In this document: positions 5,001 through 40,714 of the stretch, piece after piece
Layout of the letters: each line of letters begins with the position of its first letter
How positions within the stretch are numbered: position 1 is the first letter of the stretch
Virus genome (UHGV): UHGV-1366990
Direction: 5' to 3' (one strand)
Length of the DNA: 64,000 nucleotides
From: a virus
The notes under the pieces: model-generated
The model's input: only the letters and a program-made list of their open reading frames with translations
Database searches by the model: none
Told to the model about the DNA's origin: nothing
Made by a program: the position numbers and the translations under genes

Positions 5001-6872
5001 ATTACCACGTACACGTACACCGACAGGACGACCACCACCATGACTGGTGAGCAGATCGTTGAAACGCAGGTAATCCCATACATGCGCAAAACGAACATCA
5101 ACTTCGAAGCCACAGGTCTGCGTCCGTTCACTCGTGTGTATCCGTTCTTCTCTGGACGTGATGTGAGCGCGTACTGTACCCCAAACGGTGGTGTACTGGG
5201 TGGTGCGTTGAACACTGACGCCAACGGTAACATCAAAGGTGTGTTTGCGGTTCCTCAGAACGAGACTATCAAGTTTAACACGGGTGACAACGTTTTCCGT
5301 CTGACTGACAGTCCTGTGGATAGCAAGTCTGCTGATGATACCCTGACCAATGCTGAGGCTGTTCATAAGTCCTTCGGCAAGAAACAGGGCATCCAGAAGA
5401 CTTATGTCAATACTCGCGTCCTGGGATACACTGCGACCAAGTCTACGGAAAACAAAACAGAGACGGTTGAAGTCGCGAAGTGGAAAGATCCTATCGCCCA
5501 GTCCTTCATGGTTGCCACCAATATCGGCGGCGAATACATCGAAGGGATTGAAGTCTTCTTCTCCACCAAGTCCCGTGATATCCCGATCACTCTGGAAATC
5601 CGTGAGATGAGCAATGGTCTGCCAGCGACGACTGTCGTCACTCGTAAGACTCTGAATCCATCAGAAGTTTCCACCTCCACAGACTCTTCTGTGCCGACGA
5701 TGTTCAAGTTTGATTATCCTGTGTATCTGCAGGCGCAGACTGAGTTCGCGATCGTACTCCTGGCCAACACTCAGGACTACAACGCATACATCGCAGAGAT
5801 GGGCAAGAAGAACTTGCTGACCAACGAGTTCATTGCCAAACAGCCGTACACTGGCGTGTTCTTCACATCTTCAAATGGTACGACCTGGACTCCAAACCAG
5901 ACTGCCGATATGAAGTTCCGTGTATATCGCTGTAACTTCTCCGCTGGTTCAAACATCGTGACCTTCGATGCTAAAGTCGGTCCGAAGATCCGCCCTCTGG
6001 GTCTGAATACCGTGAAATGTGTCAACGGTTCTTCAACTGTTACTGTGTACGCTCCGGGGCATGGCCTGACTGCGGGTGAAAGTGTTACTCTGTCTGGGTT
6101 GACAGGTGGTTGCGGTTTCACTCCTGAGCAACTGAACGCTCAACACACTGTGACTGATGCGACGTTCACGACATTCAAATTCGTTCTGAGTTCCAACGCC
6201 GACTCCGACGGTCAGATTGGTGGTGAGGCGGCTTCTTTCCTAGGCAACTACTTGGTAGACATGTTCTACGCAAGCGTCACCAATTCAGCCCTGGAAGGAT
6301 CTGTGTTGAAACTGGAATACCGCTATCGCGATGCGACCTCCAACTCATTCTCTGATTGGGTTGAGTTCGAATCCGATACGGACGTGTCTCTGCCGACGGA
6401 AGGTATCTATCGTCAGGTGGGCGACTTCCAGGTTCGTGCAACCATGACTCGCAACGAGAGTAATGTCTACACGGCTCCAATGATCGACGGTGATGATTTC
6501 ACTATCATCTTCAACACCTACGGTGTGGATCCGTTTGAAGATGTGTTCAGCTATGTGACCAAGGATATCGGATTCGATAACCCTTGCACCACTCTGAAGC
6601 AATACTTCGGCGCGATGCTACCTTCTCAGTCTTCAATGACTGTGCAGGTTAAACTGCTACGCGCAGGTCAGGAGATGGATAACGTGGCATGGGAAACTGT
6701 GACACCGACATCCCCTCTGGTCAATGACGGTTCTGCATTCTTCGAATATGAGTATGACAAGACTGTAGACAGCACCAATCCTTTCGTTGGCCTGAAGATC
6801 CGCCTGCTGGTCAGAGGCAACCGCATAGCACCGCCGTCATTCAAAGATTTCCGTTTGATTGCTCTGGCATAA
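2034..6872 (+). CDS. large virion structural protein (about 1612 aa; tail fibre/baseplate-associated)
   Basis: ORF 1863..6872; first ATG with GGAG Shine-Dalgarno is at 2034 (MQEMNL...); position upstream of neck genes. Confidence 0.7.
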   Translation: MQEMNLNRRPYWDDWNPEKRFSRILFRPAPIKVQTRELNQIQTIFQDQLEKLGNHLFKDGSMVIPGGLTITNTAVSMKFTLAGGSEFTDLEGISELYVLGKDNNAKARVLSLERYPAEPDTMYAILEITESGSSDGFEAGDNLYFNTYDVNDNFIRVGYGVADTVGGSIVARMTKGVYFVRGMFLDVEPTTLIVDNASNSTSHRIGFKVTETIVTEAEDESLFSNAQGTPNSKAPGAHRLRVDLVLSRYGYDEEVADFVELAKVKDGRVQSMVTQSTYNILEDAMAQRTYETNGDYNVSTHQIDLREHLKQNNNGGVYTPAEGGDESKFVAVMKPGISYVRGRRIENLGEELVIIDKARDTDILNNNPVAVSTGNYLVSKNSKGVPVVSRTIRYKFLNASSDVQATALLISAERSGTEFRLYMRDLVVTGDMGTVTKVAYEESGTTMFSCELESNQFSQSSAIDLIFPLPVFGVKTLAPTGTIDINYTVLRSNKITLNAAGAGSISAPLGYSFSPEFSLYSAAKADGTAAQFDISSGLSLAGTPVGSALQISLGAGYANQSINLLTLMVRTTATIKTKTVTEATETVTFTAAASAQLGNHDGYKLISVKNANGADVTSNFTLDGGQRDAAYYLSNLISSAGAISGTFTVVYQYFAHSSGDFFTADSYSSINYPDIPNYVSSSSGTVYGLADSLDFRPKITSGASDTDMVRPNTAIILDAEYYLPRIDAVYLADNGVFNVARGVSSNNLASPAIPDNGMRLYELMIPPYTANIDDIQIRTIDNRRYTMRDIGKLETRISNVEYYTSLSQLESSAMSQQVFDPITGNPRFKNGIAADPFKDFRLIDDLSADWVGSIDTDNGRLRPFVQQNAIDLTPVGWNNVQDGMVVCNYTREISVRQDYATTTINVNPYAVFNWEGFLKLNPTTDYWFENYYVTPRVINETINTRGAIKEGSVYGTWRTVSVSERVWEPHGAGGVWWGYRYRTTVSTRDITTYTYTDRTTTTMTGEQIVETQVIPYMRKTNINFEATGLRPFTRVYPFFSGRDVSAYCTPNGGVLGGALNTDANGNIKGVFAVPQNETIKFNTGDNVFRLTDSPVDSKSADDTLTNAEAVHKSFGKKQGIQKTYVNTRVLGYTATKSTENKTETVEVAKWKDPIAQSFMVATNIGGEYIEGIEVFFSTKSRDIPITLEIREMSNGLPATTVVTRKTLNPSEVSTSTDSSVPTMFKFDYPVYLQAQTEFAIVLLANTQDYNAYIAEMGKKNLLTNEFIAKQPYTGVFFTSSNGTTWTPNQTADMKFRVYRCNFSAGSNIVTFDAKVGPKIRPLGLNTVKCVNGSSTVTVYAPGHGLTAGESVTLSGLTGGCGFTPEQLNAQHTVTDATFTTFKFVLSSNADSDGQIGGEAASFLGNYLVDMFYASVTNSALEGSVLKLEYRYRDATSNSFSDWVEFESDTDVSLPTEGIYRQVGDFQVRATMTRNESNVYTAPMIDGDDFTIIFNTYGVDPFEDVFSYVTKDIGFDNPCTTLKQYFGAMLPSQSSMTVQVKLLRAGQEMDNVAWETVTPTSPLVNDGSAFFEYEYDKTVDSTNPFVGLKIRLLVRGNRIAPPSFKDFRLIALA

Positions 6873-6882
6873 GTAGTATTAA

Positions 6883-6906
6883 CAAGGCGGGGTTGCCCCG
6901 CCATTA
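6883..6906 (+). terminator. stem-loop GGCGGGG-TTG-CCCCGCC after the structural gene
   Basis: Perfect 7-bp GC stem just after the stop at 6872; weak U-tract. Confidence 0.4.
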
Positions 6907-6921
6907 ACAGAGGATATTATC

Positions 6922-7170
6922 ATGCGTGGTGTAAAAGTACAAGGGCATGCATCGATGATGAGAAGTAGCTCTTGCCCTGGGGCTATCATCTGCACAGACA
7001 ATGCTGCCGGTTTGGCAGCACTGAACGCTCGTCGAAATCAGGAAGAAAAGGACAGAACTATTGCAGCGCAGGCAGCGCAAATAGATCAACTGACAGCGAT
7101 GGTACAACTCATGGCGGAACACCTCGGGATTGAACTCCCGTCAGGAGGCCAAGATGGCAACCCAAACTGA
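6922..7170 (+). CDS. hypothetical protein (82 aa)
   Basis: ATG preceded by AGAGGA; ORF track. Confidence 0.45.
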   Translation: MRGVKVQGHASMMRSSSCPGAIICTDNAAGLAALNARRNQEEKDRTIAAQAAQIDQLTAMVQLMAEHLGIELPSGGQDGNPN

Positions 7171-7492
7171 CACTGTGATCGATGTTAAAGCGATCCTCAC
7201 CGGGGTGCTGACGGCGACGATAGTCTCTGTTGGCTCGGTTGTTTGGATGATGGGTAAATTTGAGAATCGCCTTGATGTGGTTGAGCGTGACTCCAACAAG
7301 GTCGACCTGATCCTCACCAAGGTGAACGATATGAATGAGAAGATTGCTGTGTTAAACACAGACGTTAACTACGTCAAGCAGAACGTTGCTGAGTTGAAAC
7401 TCAATAGCAACAGTCTATCCGACGACGTTCGCACTTTACGTATCACCGTCGCTGATATCCAGAGCAACAAGGGGAATGGCAATGGCCGTTAA
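7154..7492 (+). CDS. membrane-anchored coiled-coil protein (112 aa)
   Basis: Start MATQTD with CAGGAGG upstream; N-terminal hydrophobic helix (LTGVLTATIVSVGSVVWMM) then heptad-like region. Confidence 0.5.
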   Translation: MATQTDTVIDVKAILTGVLTATIVSVGSVVWMMGKFENRLDVVERDSNKVDLILTKVNDMNEKIAVLNTDVNYVKQNVAELKLNSNSLSDDVRTLRITVADIQSNKGNGNGR

Positions 7493-8234
7493 TTCTATTG
7501 TTGATCGTAAAGGATTTATGAATTACATTCTCAAGAAATTGGGGGCACCTGTAATTCAGATCAACCTTGACCCAACGCAAGTTTCGGATGCTGTAGACGA
7601 TGCTCTACAGAAGTTTTGGGAGTATCATCGTGATGGCAGTCAGGACGCATTCTTTGTTCACCAGGTGACTGAAGAAACTATCACCAACGGTTACATCGAA
7701 TTCCCCAAAGACATCGACGACGTGGTTGAAGTCATCGTTGGCCCTCCGATTGAATCGATCGGTAACTGGGCAACCCCTCAATGGCAGATGGCCCAAGCCA
7801 TGTTGGTACCAAAGGCCGCCCTCGTTTCCATCCGCTTGGTCGACTATGTTTCAATGCAACAGCGTTTGTCTGACATCACCAGTGTGCTGAACGTGAAGCG
7901 CACCTTCGTTTACAAGAAATTCCAGCGCAAACTCTACCCACAATTCGCCCTGATAAAGGACGAGGTGTTGGCGTTCAAATGCTTCCAGAACATCGACCCA
8001 GAGGTTGAGGGTAATGAAGAAGCATGGAATGATATGTGGCTGAAGGCATATGCAACTGCGTTGGTCAAGCGCCGCTGGGCAGAAGTGCTCAAGAAGGCAA
8101 GAGGCATCCGTCTCCCTGGCGGTATCGAGCTGGATGGCGATAGTATGTTCAGTGAGGCTGAAGCGGAGATCGAGCGTTTAGAGGAAGAATTGCGTACTGG
8201 TCAGCAGTACCCTATCGACTTCTACATGGGATAA
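7476..8234 (+). CDS. neck protein, T4 gp13/gp14-like
   Basis: N-terminus ILKKLGAPVIQINLDPTQV resembles the recalled T4 neck protein ILRRLGAPIINVELTPDQI; synteny upstream of terminase. Confidence 0.65.
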   Translation: MAMAVNSIVDRKGFMNYILKKLGAPVIQINLDPTQVSDAVDDALQKFWEYHRDGSQDAFFVHQVTEETITNGYIEFPKDIDDVVEVIVGPPIESIGNWATPQWQMAQAMLVPKAALVSIRLVDYVSMQQRLSDITSVLNVKRTFVYKKFQRKLYPQFALIKDEVLAFKCFQNIDPEVEGNEEAWNDMWLKAYATALVKRRWAEVLKKARGIRLPGGIELDGDSMFSEAEAEIERLEEELRTGQQYPIDFYMG

Positions 8235-9884: not shown

Positions 9885-10592
9885 ATGAGTGCTATGTCAG
9901 AACGCCTATTATCCACCCTCAGTGCTATCCAAGCGCGGGATGAGGTCGCTCAAGAAGTCATGGAGAAGACCTCGCCTATGGCCAGAAAAGATTACGATCC
10001 GGATACAGGCGAATGGTTGGGTGAAAAGCCTGCGGGGTATGAGCCTGTGGTGTTTCCTCCTTCATTGGACCCAGAAGAGCTGAAGCCCAAGGAGTCTAAG
10101 GTTCCAGACTTCGAAGACACTGATGCCACCACCGACTACAAACGCATCCGTGACACGACTTATGCCATGCAGGAAGCCACGATGTTCATGATGGGACAGG
10201 CAGCCAAACTTGCGACGACGACTGAAGCACCCCGTGCCTTCACAGTCTTCAAAGAGTTGGGTGAACTCATGCGCGGCCTGAACAAAGACCTGATGGAGAA
10301 CCAGAAAACTATCAAGGCGGTCACGGGCGACAGAGAGCCACCTCCTGGAGATGAAACAACCGTCGAGGTCACCACGTCCCCTGATGGCACAACCACGGTC
10401 AACGTCGGTAAACAGGCCAGGTCTTCCCGTGATCTACTGAAGACCATCGAAGACGCCCGTAAACGTGCTGAAGAACGTGCTGCAGCGAAAGCTGCGTCCA
10501 AAGGACCTGATCCCGAAGAAGATGTAATCGACGTTCAGGCCGAGCCGCAGCCGAAGGAAGAAGGTGAAGACAATGGCGTATCAGAAGCGTGA
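9885..10592 (+). CDS. putative terminase small subunit (gp16 position)
   Basis: Acidic Pro/Glu-rich protein; ATG at 9885 with GGAG upstream; synteny only. Confidence 0.4.
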   Translation: MSAMSERLLSTLSAIQARDEVAQEVMEKTSPMARKDYDPDTGEWLGEKPAGYEPVVFPPSLDPEELKPKESKVPDFEDTDATTDYKRIRDTTYAMQEATMFMMGQAAKLATTTEAPRAFTVFKELGELMRGLNKDLMENQKTIKAVTGDREPPPGDETTVEVTTSPDGTTTVNVGKQARSSRDLLKTIEDARKRAEERAAAKAASKGPDPEEDVIDVQAEPQPKEEGEDNGVSEA

Positions 10593-12783
10593 TGTAGAAT
10601 ACGCCCCACTCAAGACGGGGTTTAAGACAGAAGACGTCAGACTGCGTATGGACCAAACGTTCATGCGCAAGCCGTCTGTGCGCGCTCCTCGTGTGGAGTT
10701 GATGCTAACAGATGAGCAGGAATCGGAGTTCGTCGAGTGCGCGATGGACGCCCATTACTTCGCCGCCAACTACTACAAGATCACGACCATCGATAAAGGC
10801 TTCATCCTCTTTGACATGCACGATTACCAGAAGCAGTTGTTCCATGACTTCCAGGACTATCGATTCAATGCGGTCGTCCAGGCTCGTCAGTCTGGGAAAT
10901 GTGTAAAAGGTGACACGCTTGTCACAGTTTACGATACTCTCAGCCAAGAGCAGTTGCTCCTGACCATAGGGGAGCTTCACAGCCGCTTCGAGGACGTCAA
11001 TCACGCTGTGCCGCTGAATACCATTGGCAACCATGACAAGTTCGTGGACAGCCGCTTCGGCAAACGTTACTTTGTGCAATCCGATAGTGGCTGGGTTCCG
11101 GTTATCGCAGCGCATAAGACGAAGAAATATGCGGAATTCGTTATTGTGACTGTTACTGGGCGGCGAATTAACGTGGCCGACGAACATATATTCTTCACTC
11201 CGGAAATGAAGGAGATATTTGCCAAAGACCTGAATGCTGGGTCATACATCATGACGTCAGAAGGTCCAGAAGAAATCCGTGAGGTTTGGCAGACTGGTGA
11301 GACGCATCACATGTATGACCTACAGGTGAAATCTAGTGATCAGCGCTACTACACCAACGGCTTCCTCAGCCACAACACGACAGTCGTGGCAGCGTTCCTG
11401 CTCTGGTATGCGATGTTCCACTCCGACAAAGAGATCGCAGTACTGGCGAACAAAGAGAAGCAGGCGATTGAAATCCTAGATCGTATTCGCAAAGCATATC
11501 AAGATTTGCCATTCTTCCTCCAACAGGGTTGTGAGAAGTTCGGTTCCACGCTGATAGAGTTCGAAAACGGATCAAAGATCTACGCCTATGCGACATCTTC
11601 CGACTCCATCCGTGGTCGATCTGTATCGCTCCTGTATGTGGACGAAGTGGCGTTCATTGAAAACGACTTTGAATTCTGGGAGTCTACATTCCCGGCGATT
11701 GCATCTGCAGAGACTTCACGTTGTATTCTGACCAGTACGCCGAAAGGTCAGCGCGGGTTGTTCTACGACATCGTCACCAAGGCGAACCCAGAACACCCAC
11801 AATACAACGACTTCAAACTCACCGAGGTCCCATGGTATCGTGTTCCAACGTACACCAAAGATCCAGACTGGGAATCCAAACAGAGGGCGAAGCTGGGTGA
11901 TGCACGTTTCGATCAAGAATTTGGCATTAAGTTCCGTGGTTCTGTGGGATCACTGATACCTGCCAAGTGTCTGGACAAGATGACCTCGAAGCTGTATCAG
12001 GAGCCGAACGAGTTCACCAAGATTTATCACGACTACGATCCCAAACGCATCTATATGGGTATCGCAGATACAGGCAAGGGTGTCGAAGGGGATTATTCTG
12101 TACTGACCATTATCGACATCACAGACTATCCTCACAAGATCGCAGCCAAGTATCGAAATAACACGATACCTCCAATGATGTACGCGTACACAATCGCCGA
12201 TATGGGCGAGAAGTATGGAACGTGCCCGATGCTAGTCGAGACTAACAACGACGTGGGTGGTCAGGTAATCACAATTCTATACCAGGAAATTGAATATCCA
12301 GAGATCATCTTCACTACAACAGATACCAAGGGTACAGGCAAAAGAATCGGTGGTCGCCGCCCTGAGCCTGGTATCAATACCAACAAGAAGGTGCGCACAA
12401 ACGGCTGTGCCAACCTGAAAGCCCTGATTGAACGTGAAATGCTGGTGATAGATGACCAGGACACGATAGATGAACTCAGTACATTCGTATGGACTGGAAC
12501 AAGGTATGAAGCCGATGATGGTTGTCATGATGACTGTGTAATGCCCCTCGTGTTGTATGCATGGGCGGTGAAACAAGAATGGTTTAGTGATCTCACCAAT
12601 TCAAATATCTCTGTGGACATGAGAGGACGGTTGTCTGCGATGGAAGAATCTCAGATGCTACCATTTGGGGGTATGATGTCGACGCCAGATCCTCACTCTG
12701 TGGAGAACATCCCAGGGTTCGGTGGAATTCAGGTTTATGATGAACGCTCTGGTGTGTCTATGGAAGAATGGCTGAGACGGTGA
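10573..12783 (+). CDS. terL: terminase large subunit (T4 gp17-like), intein-containing
   Basis: Exteins QARQSGK + TTVVAAFLLWYAMF...ILTSTPKGQRGLFYDIV align to T4 gp17 P-loop and downstream motifs; ATG at 10573 (ORF track starts at GTG 10564). Confidence 0.9.
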   Translation: MAYQKRDVEYAPLKTGFKTEDVRLRMDQTFMRKPSVRAPRVELMLTDEQESEFVECAMDAHYFAANYYKITTIDKGFILFDMHDYQKQLFHDFQDYRFNAVVQARQSGKCVKGDTLVTVYDTLSQEQLLLTIGELHSRFEDVNHAVPLNTIGNHDKFVDSRFGKRYFVQSDSGWVPVIAAHKTKKYAEFVIVTVTGRRINVADEHIFFTPEMKEIFAKDLNAGSYIMTSEGPEEIREVWQTGETHHMYDLQVKSSDQRYYTNGFLSHNTTVVAAFLLWYAMFHSDKEIAVLANKEKQAIEILDRIRKAYQDLPFFLQQGCEKFGSTLIEFENGSKIYAYATSSDSIRGRSVSLLYVDEVAFIENDFEFWESTFPAIASAETSRCILTSTPKGQRGLFYDIVTKANPEHPQYNDFKLTEVPWYRVPTYTKDPDWESKQRAKLGDARFDQEFGIKFRGSVGSLIPAKCLDKMTSKLYQEPNEFTKIYHDYDPKRIYMGIADTGKGVEGDYSVLTIIDITDYPHKIAAKYRNNTIPPMMYAYTIADMGEKYGTCPMLVETNNDVGGQVITILYQEIEYPEIIFTTTDTKGTGKRIGGRRPEPGINTNKKVRTNGCANLKALIEREMLVIDDQDTIDELSTFVWTGTRYEADDGCHDDCVMPLVLYAWAVKQEWFSDLTNSNISVDMRGRLSAMEESQMLPFGGMMSTPDPHSVENIPGFGGIQVYDERSGVSMEEWLRR
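10900..11376 (+). mobile_element. mini-intein (159 aa) inserted in TerL Walker A
   Basis: Begins with Cys (CVKGDTLV), ends ...FLSHN followed by Thr +1; removal restores a contiguous GK-T P-loop; too short for an endonuclease domain. Confidence 0.75.
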
Positions 12784-24421: not shown

Positions 24422-24470
24422 TCATTCCATAAGCAGCACAACACTGACTCTGAAATGAAGGAACTATATC

Positions 24471-24788
24471 ATGAACACTCCAAAAATCTCTATCTGGGCT
24501 TTCGACGAATTCACCGCATTTGACGCTCTGATTGCTACTCTGGGTTGTGCTCCTCAGGAAGCGGAAGACGATTACTCCCGCACTAACAAAGTCAAGATGG
24601 TGAACACCACTCACGATTTCAAACACGACCTGAACTCCTTCTTGGACGTTTTGGCTACCACCCTGCCAGAAGCTGACATGGCAACTGTGCGCGGCTCTAT
24701 CTTTAAGAAGAACGGCGAAATGCGCAAGTTAGCGGGTAAAGAAGTGAAATTCGCCGCCGACGGTTTCTTCATCACCATTGAATTCTGA
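24471..24788 (+). CDS. hypothetical early protein (105 aa)
   Basis: ATG in the conserved GAAGGAACTATATCATG start region. Confidence 0.55.
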   Translation: MNTPKISIWAFDEFTAFDALIATLGCAPQEAEDDYSRTNKVKMVNTTHDFKHDLNSFLDVLATTLPEADMATVRGSIFKKNGEMRKLAGKEVKFAADGFFITIEF

Positions 24789-24802
24789 TTGAGGTGCACA
24801 CC

Positions 24803-25132
24803 ATGACTTTTAAAGGCTTTGTAGCATTCGACGCAACCAAAACCAACGTGCTGAGCAATCCGCAGCTGGAAACCATCTCTGAAATGCGCCAGTGGGTGAT
24901 GGGGATCACTGGCCATCAAACCCGCAAAGATCTTGAAGCGGAGTTCTATATCGAACCTGCTGAAGTCTTCTTCAATCGCCCTGAAGATGAACCGTTCATC
25001 CGTCAAGACTTGGATGACAATGATATCACTCTCGCGATCTTCTCTGAAGCAAAAGCGGCTATGATCGTGGACGGCCTGTGTGATGAGTCCTTCACATACG
25101 ATGAATACTGCGATCAGTGTCAGGATCTGTGA
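24803..25132 (+). CDS. hypothetical protein (109 aa)
   Basis: First ATG in ORF 24794..25132. Confidence 0.5.
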   Translation: MTFKGFVAFDATKTNVLSNPQLETISEMRQWVMGITGHQTRKDLEAEFYIEPAEVFFNRPEDEPFIRQDLDDNDITLAIFSEAKAAMIVDGLCDESFTYDEYCDQCQDL

Positions 25133-39108: not shown

Positions 39109-39510
39109 ATGAAACTTGTCATCTGTGATTACTGCGGCCTCCTAGCCGAATTCGTCGGTGGTGATGTTCTCTACCCTCATCGCCCTGACCTCCGCAATCT
39201 GAAGTTCTGGGTGTGCACTCCATGTGATGCCCGTGTCGGTTGCCATGCCCATGGCGACGGCAGACAACCTTTGGGAAGGATGGCGAATGCCGCTCTCCGT
39301 GCTGCTAAGCAGGAAGCCCATAGATCGTTTGACCCATTGTGGAAAAGCGGAGAGAGGAGCAGGAGCGACGCTTACAGTTGGCTGGCGCATGAGCTGGGGA
39401 TAAAGAAGCGTGAGTGTCATATTGGCTTGTTCGATATCGACATGTGCCGTAAAGTAGTTGCTGTATGCAACCAATTACGGGAAACACAGAATGGCAACCA
39501 TCAATCGTAA
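39109..39510 (+). CDS. zinc-ribbon protein (DUF3268-like)
   Basis: CDYCG...CTPCDARVGCHAHG cysteine pattern; ATG is residue 11 of ORF 39079. Confidence 0.5.
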   Translation: MKLVICDYCGLLAEFVGGDVLYPHRPDLRNLKFWVCTPCDARVGCHAHGDGRQPLGRMANAALRAAKQEAHRSFDPLWKSGERSRSDAYSWLAHELGIKKRECHIGLFDIDMCRKVVAVCNQLRETQNGNHQS

Positions 39511-40285
39511 TGAACCCCAAGGTGTTGAGCTGAAGGGTAAATCTGTTCGCGAAGGTCTAAGGCTATCTCCAGATCTTCTGAAGTCACACATTGCCGAAGT
39601 CATCTATGAAGACCGTGAAGTCGGCGGCCACCGCGTCATCACCTGCCACTTCAAGATGGACAACGGCTTTGTCGTGTGGGGTAAGAGTAGCTCTACTTCC
39701 ATCGACCCTGCCAACTTTGATGAAGAGTTGGGCAAGAAGCTGGCCTATGACAAGACCTTCTCCCAGTTGTGGGAACTGGAAGCCTACCGCGCCGTTGTGG
39801 AGAAGCAGATGTTGGAGGTGGCTACCGCCGATGCGAAGATAGACATCTTCCAGTACATCTCCGAAAGGGGGAAGATAAATCATATGGCTGGGATGGAATT
39901 CTTACAAGGCCACGGTCAGTCTTTCGTGTTCCGACATCCACGAGACCCAAGTCGCGGATTCGGTGCTGAATTTATTCAGACTGACAACGAACGCCACAAC
40001 GAACAATTCAATGGTAAATCCCGAGAGAAGGTTGAAGCCTATCTGCGTTCGTTCATGCGCCCGGATGAATTGTATTCTGAACTCGTTGTTCGTCTGGCCA
40101 AGACTTGCATGGCGGCCTACAAGGGTGGGATCTACTTTAATGCCACCTCTTGGGATAAGATGAGCGCCGAAGAACAGAAAGACTGCTGTGATGACGTCAG
40201 GCGGCTCTTGCTGGCTCCGACGGATTATACCCCAACCGACCAGAAGGATGCGCTGTTCAAGGCCATCGTTGATTCTTACAAATAA
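39491..40285 (+). CDS. hypothetical protein with Gp49-like N-terminal domain
   Basis: ITCHFKMDNGFVVWGKSS...DPANFDEELGKKLAY resembles the phage Gp49/Sf6-gp66 family; from memory. Confidence 0.45.
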   Translation: MATINRNEPQGVELKGKSVREGLRLSPDLLKSHIAEVIYEDREVGGHRVITCHFKMDNGFVVWGKSSSTSIDPANFDEELGKKLAYDKTFSQLWELEAYRAVVEKQMLEVATADAKIDIFQYISERGKINHMAGMEFLQGHGQSFVFRHPRDPSRGFGAEFIQTDNERHNEQFNGKSREKVEAYLRSFMRPDELYSELVVRLAKTCMAAYKGGIYFNATSWDKMSAEEQKDCCDDVRRLLLAPTDYTPTDQKDALFKAIVDSYK

Positions 40286-40358
40286 CTGAATTATCAAAGT
40301 CCTTCAATAACAATAACGCCCAGTATATTTGCTGGGCGTTTCAATTTGTACATCACAG

Positions 40359-40395: not shown

Positions 40396-40629
40396 ATGTT
40401 TCGTTTGAAATTGAACGACCAAGATGTGTTCTACAAACACTTCACCTTCCCAGGTGGTGAGGAACATATCAAGATTCAAAAATCTGGTATCCCTATCGGC
40501 CATGTTCAGAACGTGGTGATTGATGCTCACATCAAATCATCAGACGTTCAGAAGCGGTTGGCTCTATCCAGCGCCTGTGGGAGATCTTTGAAACTGGGCA
40601 CTTCCTGTTGGATGAGCACATCGGCCTGA
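40396..40629 (+). CDS. hypothetical small protein, possibly frameshifted
   Basis: The first 50 aa are protein-like, the tail is junk-like; the alternative frame gives SIQRLWEIFETGHFLLDEHIGLIYGDSITPPGA ending in a C7 tract. Confidence 0.3.
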   Translation: MFRLKLNDQDVFYKHFTFPGGEEHIKIQKSGIPIGHVQNVVIDAHIKSSDVQKRLALSSACGRSLKLGTSCWMSTSA

Positions 40630-40714
40630 TCTACGGTGATTCTATCACCCCCCCTGGCGCGTGAAGACCGCTATTAAATCCCAACAGGGCGTCGTCTCTG
40701 TTAAGTGAGATCAA

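Follow-up and report, generated by a model that had tools for sequence, protein, structure and literature searches.

A probable class 1 mini-intein in the Walker A motif of the large terminase of an Agtrevirus-type coliphage, with a mosaic tract pointing to allele exchange between Ackermannviridae genera

The large terminase (TerL) gene of virus genome UHGV-1366990, analysed here within a 64,000-nucleotide (nt) stretch that we refer to as the window, carries an in-frame insert that is very probably a class 1 mini-intein, located at the 'classic' P-loop site (GK/T; a slash marks a junction throughout) of a T4 gp17-type TerL. TerL inteins of Vi1-like phages have been known since 2013, and the finding is correct but ordinary; any novelty implied by a first-pass annotation of the window did not hold. 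That annotation had described a continuous TerL frame with 159 extra codons placed between the P-loop Lys and Thr, which proved exact, including the flanks. The insert comprises 477 nt, or 159 stop-free codons, and the predicted Cys start, His-Asn end and following Thr are all found in the DNA (TGT at 10900-10902, CAC AAC at 11371-11376 and ACG at 11377-11379). At the protein level the junctions read ...VVQARQSGK / CVKGDTLV...GFLSHN / TTVVAAFLLWYAMF. Removal of the insert leaves a 577-amino-acid (aa) protein with a restored P-loop that is colinear with the T4 gp17 structures 3ezk/3cpe (expectation value (E) 3.4e-72), in agreement with the match to gp17 claimed earlier. As this alignment runs without a break through the junction (query ARQSGKTTVVAAFL versus T4 SRQLGKTTVVAIFL), the insert separates the Lys from the Thr of the TerL Walker A motif (RQSGK/TT).

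To establish the identity of the insert we used profile hidden Markov models (HMMs), which the first-pass annotation had proposed as a check for a Hint domain. The model for the intein N-terminal splicing region, TIGR01445, matched at 25.1 bits, above its cut-off of 24.5, while TIGR01443 reached 11.9 bits against a cut-off of 15.6. All Pfam and NCBIfam matches of the insert were intein-related, consisting of splicing-domain models, a sub-threshold match to PT-HINT and two sub-threshold models of intein-containing proteins. A single-sequence search of the PDB sequences returned inteins only, as weak matches. A profile of 21 homologous mini-inteins searched against the PDB likewise returned inteins only, with gp41-1 (6.4e-11) and VidaL (2.1e-10) accompanied by the CatC and CDC21 inteins and NrdJ-1.

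The fold agreed with these results. An AlphaFold (AF2) model built from the 21-sequence mini-intein alignment had a predicted local distance difference test score (pLDDT) of 95 and a predicted template modelling score (pTM) of 0.88, and consisted of one HINT domain plus two short helices (residues 23–43). This model superseded a single-sequence AlphaFold prediction of the intein with its flanks, which was useless (pLDDT 32). When the PDB was searched with the model using Foldseek, the best 50 matches were all inteins, bacterial intein-like (BIL) domains or HINT domains (E down to 6e-11, template modelling (TM) scores 0.6–0.83), among them VidaL, NpuDnaB, Mxe GyrA, gp41-1, PhoRadA and Mtu RecA. 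An endonuclease domain was sought in the 159-aa intein by HMM and in the AF2 model and was found in neither, as expected from the earlier remark that the insert has no room for one.

We then considered the residues predicted to carry out splicing, using the alignment of the 21 mini-inteins, in which identities extend down to 36%. The invariant positions are the putative splicing residues of blocks A, B, F and G (Table 1). Block B is matched by SDNH in CatC and by AFNH in VidaL. All 21 sequences, and nearly all occupied sites, have Thr at +1; three more distant homologues have Ser instead, and both residues are permitted +1 nucleophiles. Ratios of nonsynonymous to synonymous substitution (dN/dS) were 0.05–0.2 in the intein and 0.02–0.04 in the exteins, so that selection is purifying in both and weaker in the intein. 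Amino-acid divergence from phage Ag3 was ~8-10x that of the exteins (dN 0.165 versus 0.015–0.023).

Table 1. Positions of the TerL gene, the predicted intein and its splicing residues, and the recombinant tract in the window
Feature	Position	Strand	Description
TerL precursor coding sequence (gp17-type large terminase)	10573..12783	+	736 aa plus stop; in-frame GTG alternative at 10564
N-extein	10573..10899	+	109 aa; ends in the first half of Walker A, ...ARQSGK; from T4 gp17 alignment
Recombinant tract, Kuttervirus-type (GG32/EP75-like) in Agtrevirus-type (Ag3/P46FS4-like) TerL	10857..11286	+	From sliding-window identity
Probable class 1 mini-intein	10900..11376	+	159 aa, 18.2 kDa, HINT fold, without homing-endonuclease domain
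Block A Cys1	10900..10902	+	Putative first-step nucleophile; sole Cys of the intein; invariant in the 21 mini-inteins and all occupied sites found
Block B A93-D94-E95-H96	11176..11187	+	A93, D94 and H96 invariant; usual Thr is Ala
Block F Asp140 (in MYDLQV)	11317..11319	+	Invariant in the 21 mini-inteins
Block G His158-Asn159 and Thr+1	11371..11379	+	L156, S157, H158 and N159 invariant; Thr+1 is the Walker A Thr
C-extein	11377..12783	+	468 aa plus stop; remaining ATPase domain and RNaseH-like nuclease domain

The distribution of the insert was examined in an index of 5.8 billion proteins. The intein alone retrieved 2 matches, and the full precursor was needed to recover 746 TerL relatives. Many of these carry an insert at the exact GK/ position that begins with Cys and ends Y[YF]T[ND]G[FI]LSHN. 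Phage records with the insert number 310, nearly all of them plaque-forming isolates, and by megablast 251 of 254 matches span the whole TerL gene. No intein-less allele was seen among the cultured enterobacterial Ackermannviridae listed. Uninterrupted TerLs do occur: P0015-P0019, with 74–84% extein identity, read RQSGKTTVVAAFLLWYA without a break, as do many more distant proteins, including those of Vibrio phages. The intein-less alleles present an exact empty site, RQSGK/TTVVAAFLLWYA. One such protein, P0016, is encoded in a 118-kb Ackermannviridae-like contig with the gene order of the window, and at the DNA level its site is an exact fusion of the two flanks in the window. The 118-kb contigs L007/L008 (positions 6001-7746; Logan SRR30800387 and SRR31815898) derive from an uncultured Ackermannviridae-like phage that shares the structural-gene synteny of the window and has an intein-less TerL of 581 aa and 77% extein identity; the empty site was seen at the nucleotide level in L007.

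The same intein family occupies the same GK/T site in Vibrio (VP-1, VAP7), Campylobacter (CP21, IBB_35), Salicola (SCTP-2) and metagenomic phages. These inteins end in Y[YF]T[ND]G[FI]LSHN/T, have ADDH in block B and are 33–43% identical to that of the window; they measure 150–181 aa and vary in the loops that separate block A from the KFVDS motif, and some reach 423–447 aa. The longer relatives, found at the same site in the metagenomic TerLs P0054, P0060 and P0064, have an extra ~280 aa between block A and a KF[VI]DS motif, not blocks B-F, and this extra sequence looks charged and of low complexity. A Pfam search for an endonuclease domain in these 423–447-aa relatives gave no match. Separately, the TerL open reading frames (ORFs) P0059 (Vibrio phage VP-1), P0052, P0056 and P0083 have, besides a P-loop intein, a GIY-YIG / SegE-like domain that follows the ATPase domain, and P0083 has an apparent second intein ending FWANGITAHN/C.

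Comparison of the intein and its exteins with those of relatives revealed discordant histories. Against PhaxI (Kuttervirus) the exteins are 86.5% and the intein 96.2% identical, while against the Agtrevirus-like P0004 and P0006 the exteins are 92.7% and 92.9% identical and the inteins 78.0% and 70.4%, respectively. Within the recombinant tract (Table 1) nucleotide identity is 92–99% to GG32/EP75 and 64–83% to Ag3/P46FS4, and the rest of TerL shows the opposite. Kuttervirus-type informative sites make up 101/115 in 10821-11300 versus 61/378 outside; when only unambiguous sites were counted (101/111 versus 61/347), Fisher's test gave p = 5e-46. The synonymous divergence (dS) to GG32 is 0.35 in the intein versus ~2.3 in the exteins. 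All ten close relatives of the window have the tract in common. Within Kuttervirus itself there are two intein alleles, 79% identical to each other, that reside on 98%-identical exteins, with ~88 records each. The tract begins ~45 nt before the N-extein/intein junction, extends ~390 nt into the intein and stops ~90 nt before the intein end, and we therefore interpret it as a gene-conversion tract and not a precise intein transfer. On this sequence evidence, intein alleles are exchanged between Ackermannviridae genera.

We also considered that the intein might still be mobile in trans. A homing endonuclease of the NUMOD3 type, 293 aa long and free-standing (named F-LimIX in LIMEstone1), is located exactly at the TerS/TerL junction in some Kuttervirus, in all Limestonevirus listed (Dickeya phages) and in part of the Klebsiella phages. 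This protein is 94–100% identical across genera (the GG32 copy lies at L002 1806-2687), and its first five residues, MAYQK, are those of TerL. The mosaic tract could then be a footprint of homing or co-conversion and not of ordinary recombination, as the discordance between intein and extein identities, the sharp bounds of the tract, and the position of this mobile gene directly upstream of TerL in GG32, LIMEstone phages and some Klebsiella phages would allow. However, no homologue of the GG32/F-LimIX endonuclease was found in the window when it was sought there (TerS/TerL junction, ~10573-10592), and EP75 shares the intein allele in the absence of an F-LimIX-type endonuclease. The endonuclease also co-occurs with both Kuttervirus intein alleles, and the tract stops short of the TerS/TerL junction and has its right end inside the intein. 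We therefore regard homing in trans as unlikely. Recombination around the 5' end of TerL could be promoted by the endonuclease, but a causal link to the tract is unlikely. There is similarly a slim chance that the endonuclease-free mini-intein acts as an exchangeable cassette among Ackermannviridae genera, one Kuttervirus allele having been copied into the Agtrevirus lineage, with NUMOD3-driven 'collaborative homing' and/or allele-specific splicing kinetics that tune packaging.

If the insert is a class 1 mini-intein, its action can be outlined by analogy with the established chemistry of that class. The HINT domain would fold within the 84.5-kDa precursor, and Cys1 would undergo an N-S acyl shift at Lys(-1). 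The thioester would pass to the hydroxyl of Thr+1 by trans-esterification, and cyclisation of Asn159, assisted by His158, would free the 18-kDa intein. A final O-N shift would produce a native Lys-Thr bond and restore the Walker A sequence SGKTT, so that ATP binding and assembly of the packaging motor would be limited to the spliced 66-kDa TerL. The calculated masses of the precursor, the 577-aa spliced TerL and the intein are 84.5, 66.3 and 18.2 kDa, respectively. The spliced protein would contain ...QARQSGK-TTVVAAF..., which would yield the chymotryptic junction peptide NAVVQARQSGKTTVVAAF. As trypsin cuts at Lys(-1)/Thr+1, the resulting TTVVAAFLLWYAMFHSDK peptide is alike for splicing and for C-terminal cleavage.

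Several observations weigh against assignment of the insert as a functional intein. The Pfam model Intein_splicing (PF14890) scored 35.0 bits on the insert (E 1.6e-8), 0.8 bits under its gathering threshold of 35.8. In block B, the Thr of the TxxH motif is replaced by an invariant Ala, although the functional VidaL intein also has Ala at this position. Block F of the 159-aa Ackermannviridae clade has Gln in place of His (SDQRYY versus DHRYY in distant members). Direct protein evidence of splicing was sought in the literature and none was found; the TerL peptides listed in a proteomics study of Vi01-like phages carry no junction information. The block B Ala and block F Gln, though tolerated in known inteins, are non-canonical. 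As hundreds of plaque-forming isolates carry a split P-loop and their terminase must work, we infer that splicing must occur.

The mini-intein has no endonuclease and would be inherited vertically in all of the cultured enterobacterial Ackermannviridae examined. Its splicing competence would be held by purifying selection because a non-splicing mutant would have no terminase, and its retention would follow from the fact that no deletion other than a codon-exact one would leave a viable phage. Homologous recombination during co-infection may shuffle its alleles between genera, and the window carries such a tract.

The first-pass annotation had suggested that splicing efficiency could gate DNA packaging, and a conditional switch of this kind would have splicing rate respond to temperature, redox, DNA or assembly partners so as to time or gate packaging. 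The P-loop location makes TerL activity strictly dependent on splicing, the intein is kept in all cultured enterobacterial members of the family seen, and conditional splicing of P-loop inteins has been discussed (PMC5050341). However, nothing that we found points to regulation. Cys1 is the sole cysteine and the +1 residue is Thr, which leaves no intramolecular disulfide trap, and close uncultured relatives manage without the intein. The intein protein also evolves ~8-10x faster than the exteins, as expected of a tolerated parasite, and the lethality of imprecise deletion suffices to explain retention. That splicing gates packaging is a legitimate hypothesis, but one that could be raised for P-loop inteins in general, and for this intein we consider it quite improbable.

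Two further readings dispense with splicing altogether. In one, the insert is a permanent HINT-like domain that is not excised, with TerL working despite the insertion, for which one could cite the conservation of the 159-residue length across hundreds of phages; we consider this very improbable, as the insert splits the Walker A Lys from the Thr, the invariant residues are the catalytic splicing ones, and T4 gp17 and the intein-less homologues have a contiguous motif. The first-pass annotation had named such a conserved, non-excised domain among the results that would overturn its reading; the 159 residues are indeed conserved, but the splicing residues are conserved with them, and the site is precisely empty in intein-less relatives. 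In the other, a BIL or pretoxin-HINT domain would cleave without ligating, as might be suggested by the weak PT-HINT (PF07591) match (16.2 bits, E 0.013) and by the annotation of some Dickeya phage records, such as 'pretoxin HINT domain protein' in phiD3, but this has hardly any likelihood, since the score is far under the 27.7-bit cut-off, the insert is embedded in Walker A with canonical intein residues at both junctions, including the +1 nucleophile, cleavage without ligation would ruin the ATPase of an essential protein, and true inteins are the best matches in both sequence and fold.

TerL inteins were reported in the Salmonella phages Maynard (2013) and Marshall (2013; PMC3853055), in phage Mooltan (PMC6486243) and in Klebsiella phage Magnus (PMC6763660). 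The intein of the window shares with these its host gene, insertion site and 159-aa length. The nr entry 'intein [Salmonella phage Maynard]' (P0001) is 76% identical to it at the amino-acid level. In contrast to Maynard, the window has a different allele, of GG32/PhaxI type (96–97% identical), in an Agtrevirus-type TerL, and the published notes on Maynard, Marshall, Mooltan and Magnus give neither the site, the alleles nor recombination. Kelley et al. (2016, PMC5050341) describe GK/T as the 'classic' site for P-loop inteins and report reporter splicing of inteins from four further TerL insertion sites (TerL1-b, -c, -e and TerL6-f) and from one terminase-like protein. The mycobacteriophage TerL1-a inteins belong to the terminase_1 family, unlike the gp17-type terminase_6 of the window, and several mycobacteriophage inteins carry active endonucleases, which the intein of the window does not (PMC5050341). 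Among inteins of known structure, it resembles VidaL (6vgv; HINT fold, TM 0.76–0.83), with which it also shares the block B Ala (AFNH in VidaL), and the Pyrococcus horikoshii RadA intein (4e2t; TM 0.79). VidaL, the cyanophage-like gp41-1 (6qaz) and PhoRadA are 15–25% identical to it and reside in other host proteins; the first two of them are naturally split, whereas the intein of the window is contiguous.

TerL is a standard marker gene for tailed phages. An unrecognised TerL intein distorts the trees and similarity clusters built on this gene, notably when its alleles recombine between genera, and should be removed before analysis. Otherwise, the insert is one more case of the well-documented preference of inteins for ATPase P-loops and introduces no new principle. 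The mosaic tract is a modest new detail and a small example of intein alleles being exchanged with no intein-encoded endonuclease. As a compact 159-aa Cys1/Thr+1 intein of a mesophilic coliphage, the insert could become a minor part for protein engineering.

The precursor is encoded by a single long plus-strand ORF that begins at 10564 (GTG) or 10573 (ATG) and ends at 12783 in the ORF list. We favour the ATG on the basis of annotated relatives (e.g. LHE287) and a ribosome-binding site, AAGGTGAAG. Counted from this ATG, the insert occupies residues 110–268; the numbering of the first-pass annotation, 113-271, fits the GTG start (739 aa), and its precursor length of 737 aa fits neither start. 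Pfam places Terminase_6N at residues 269–461 and Terminase_6C at 498–655 of the precursor. TerL is 99% identical at the nucleotide level to the annotated 'terminase large subunit' of phage LHE287, as it is to the genes of the Escherichia phages YX22 and RPN242, and ~88% identical to those of Ag3 and P46FS4. By sequence comparison, the host gene is a gp17-type TerL and the window is from an Ackermannviridae (Vi1-like) coliphage of Agtrevirus type. Its gene order is T4-like, namely gp13-gp14-gp15-TerS-TerL-sheath-tube-portal. The GC content is 49.5% in the intein, 48.5–52.0% in the exteins and 49.3% in the window, and base composition gave no sign of a foreign origin of the intein.

An antisense ORF at 10705..11187 (minus strand, 160 aa) was considered as a gene and rejected. 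It is stop-free in Ag3, GG32, EP75 and P46FS4, but it overlaps the N-extein and the intein across their boundary, and its changes merely mirror those of the sense strand. We judge that it probably just shadows the sense frame.

Elsewhere in the window (1-64000), no tRNA genes and no Rfam families at the gathering threshold were detected. Relative to LHE287, the closest phage, several regions differ. At ~40541-40669, the nicotinamide phosphoribosyltransferase and ribose-phosphate pyrophosphokinase genes of LHE287 (record 94390-96905) are mostly missing (~2.4 kb), leaving short remnants and joined flanks. An insertion of ~660 nt at 24468-25131 contains two small plus-strand ORFs, 24471..24788 (105 aa) and 24794..25132 (112 aa). 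Positions 1-1986, 39480-40302 and 59.7-63.3 kb have no match or a patchy match to LHE287. The first of these belongs to the tailspike/tail-fibre module, for which exchange is known in Ackermannviridae, and LHE287 has a different sequence at the counterpart of the ORF 39458..40285 (275 aa).

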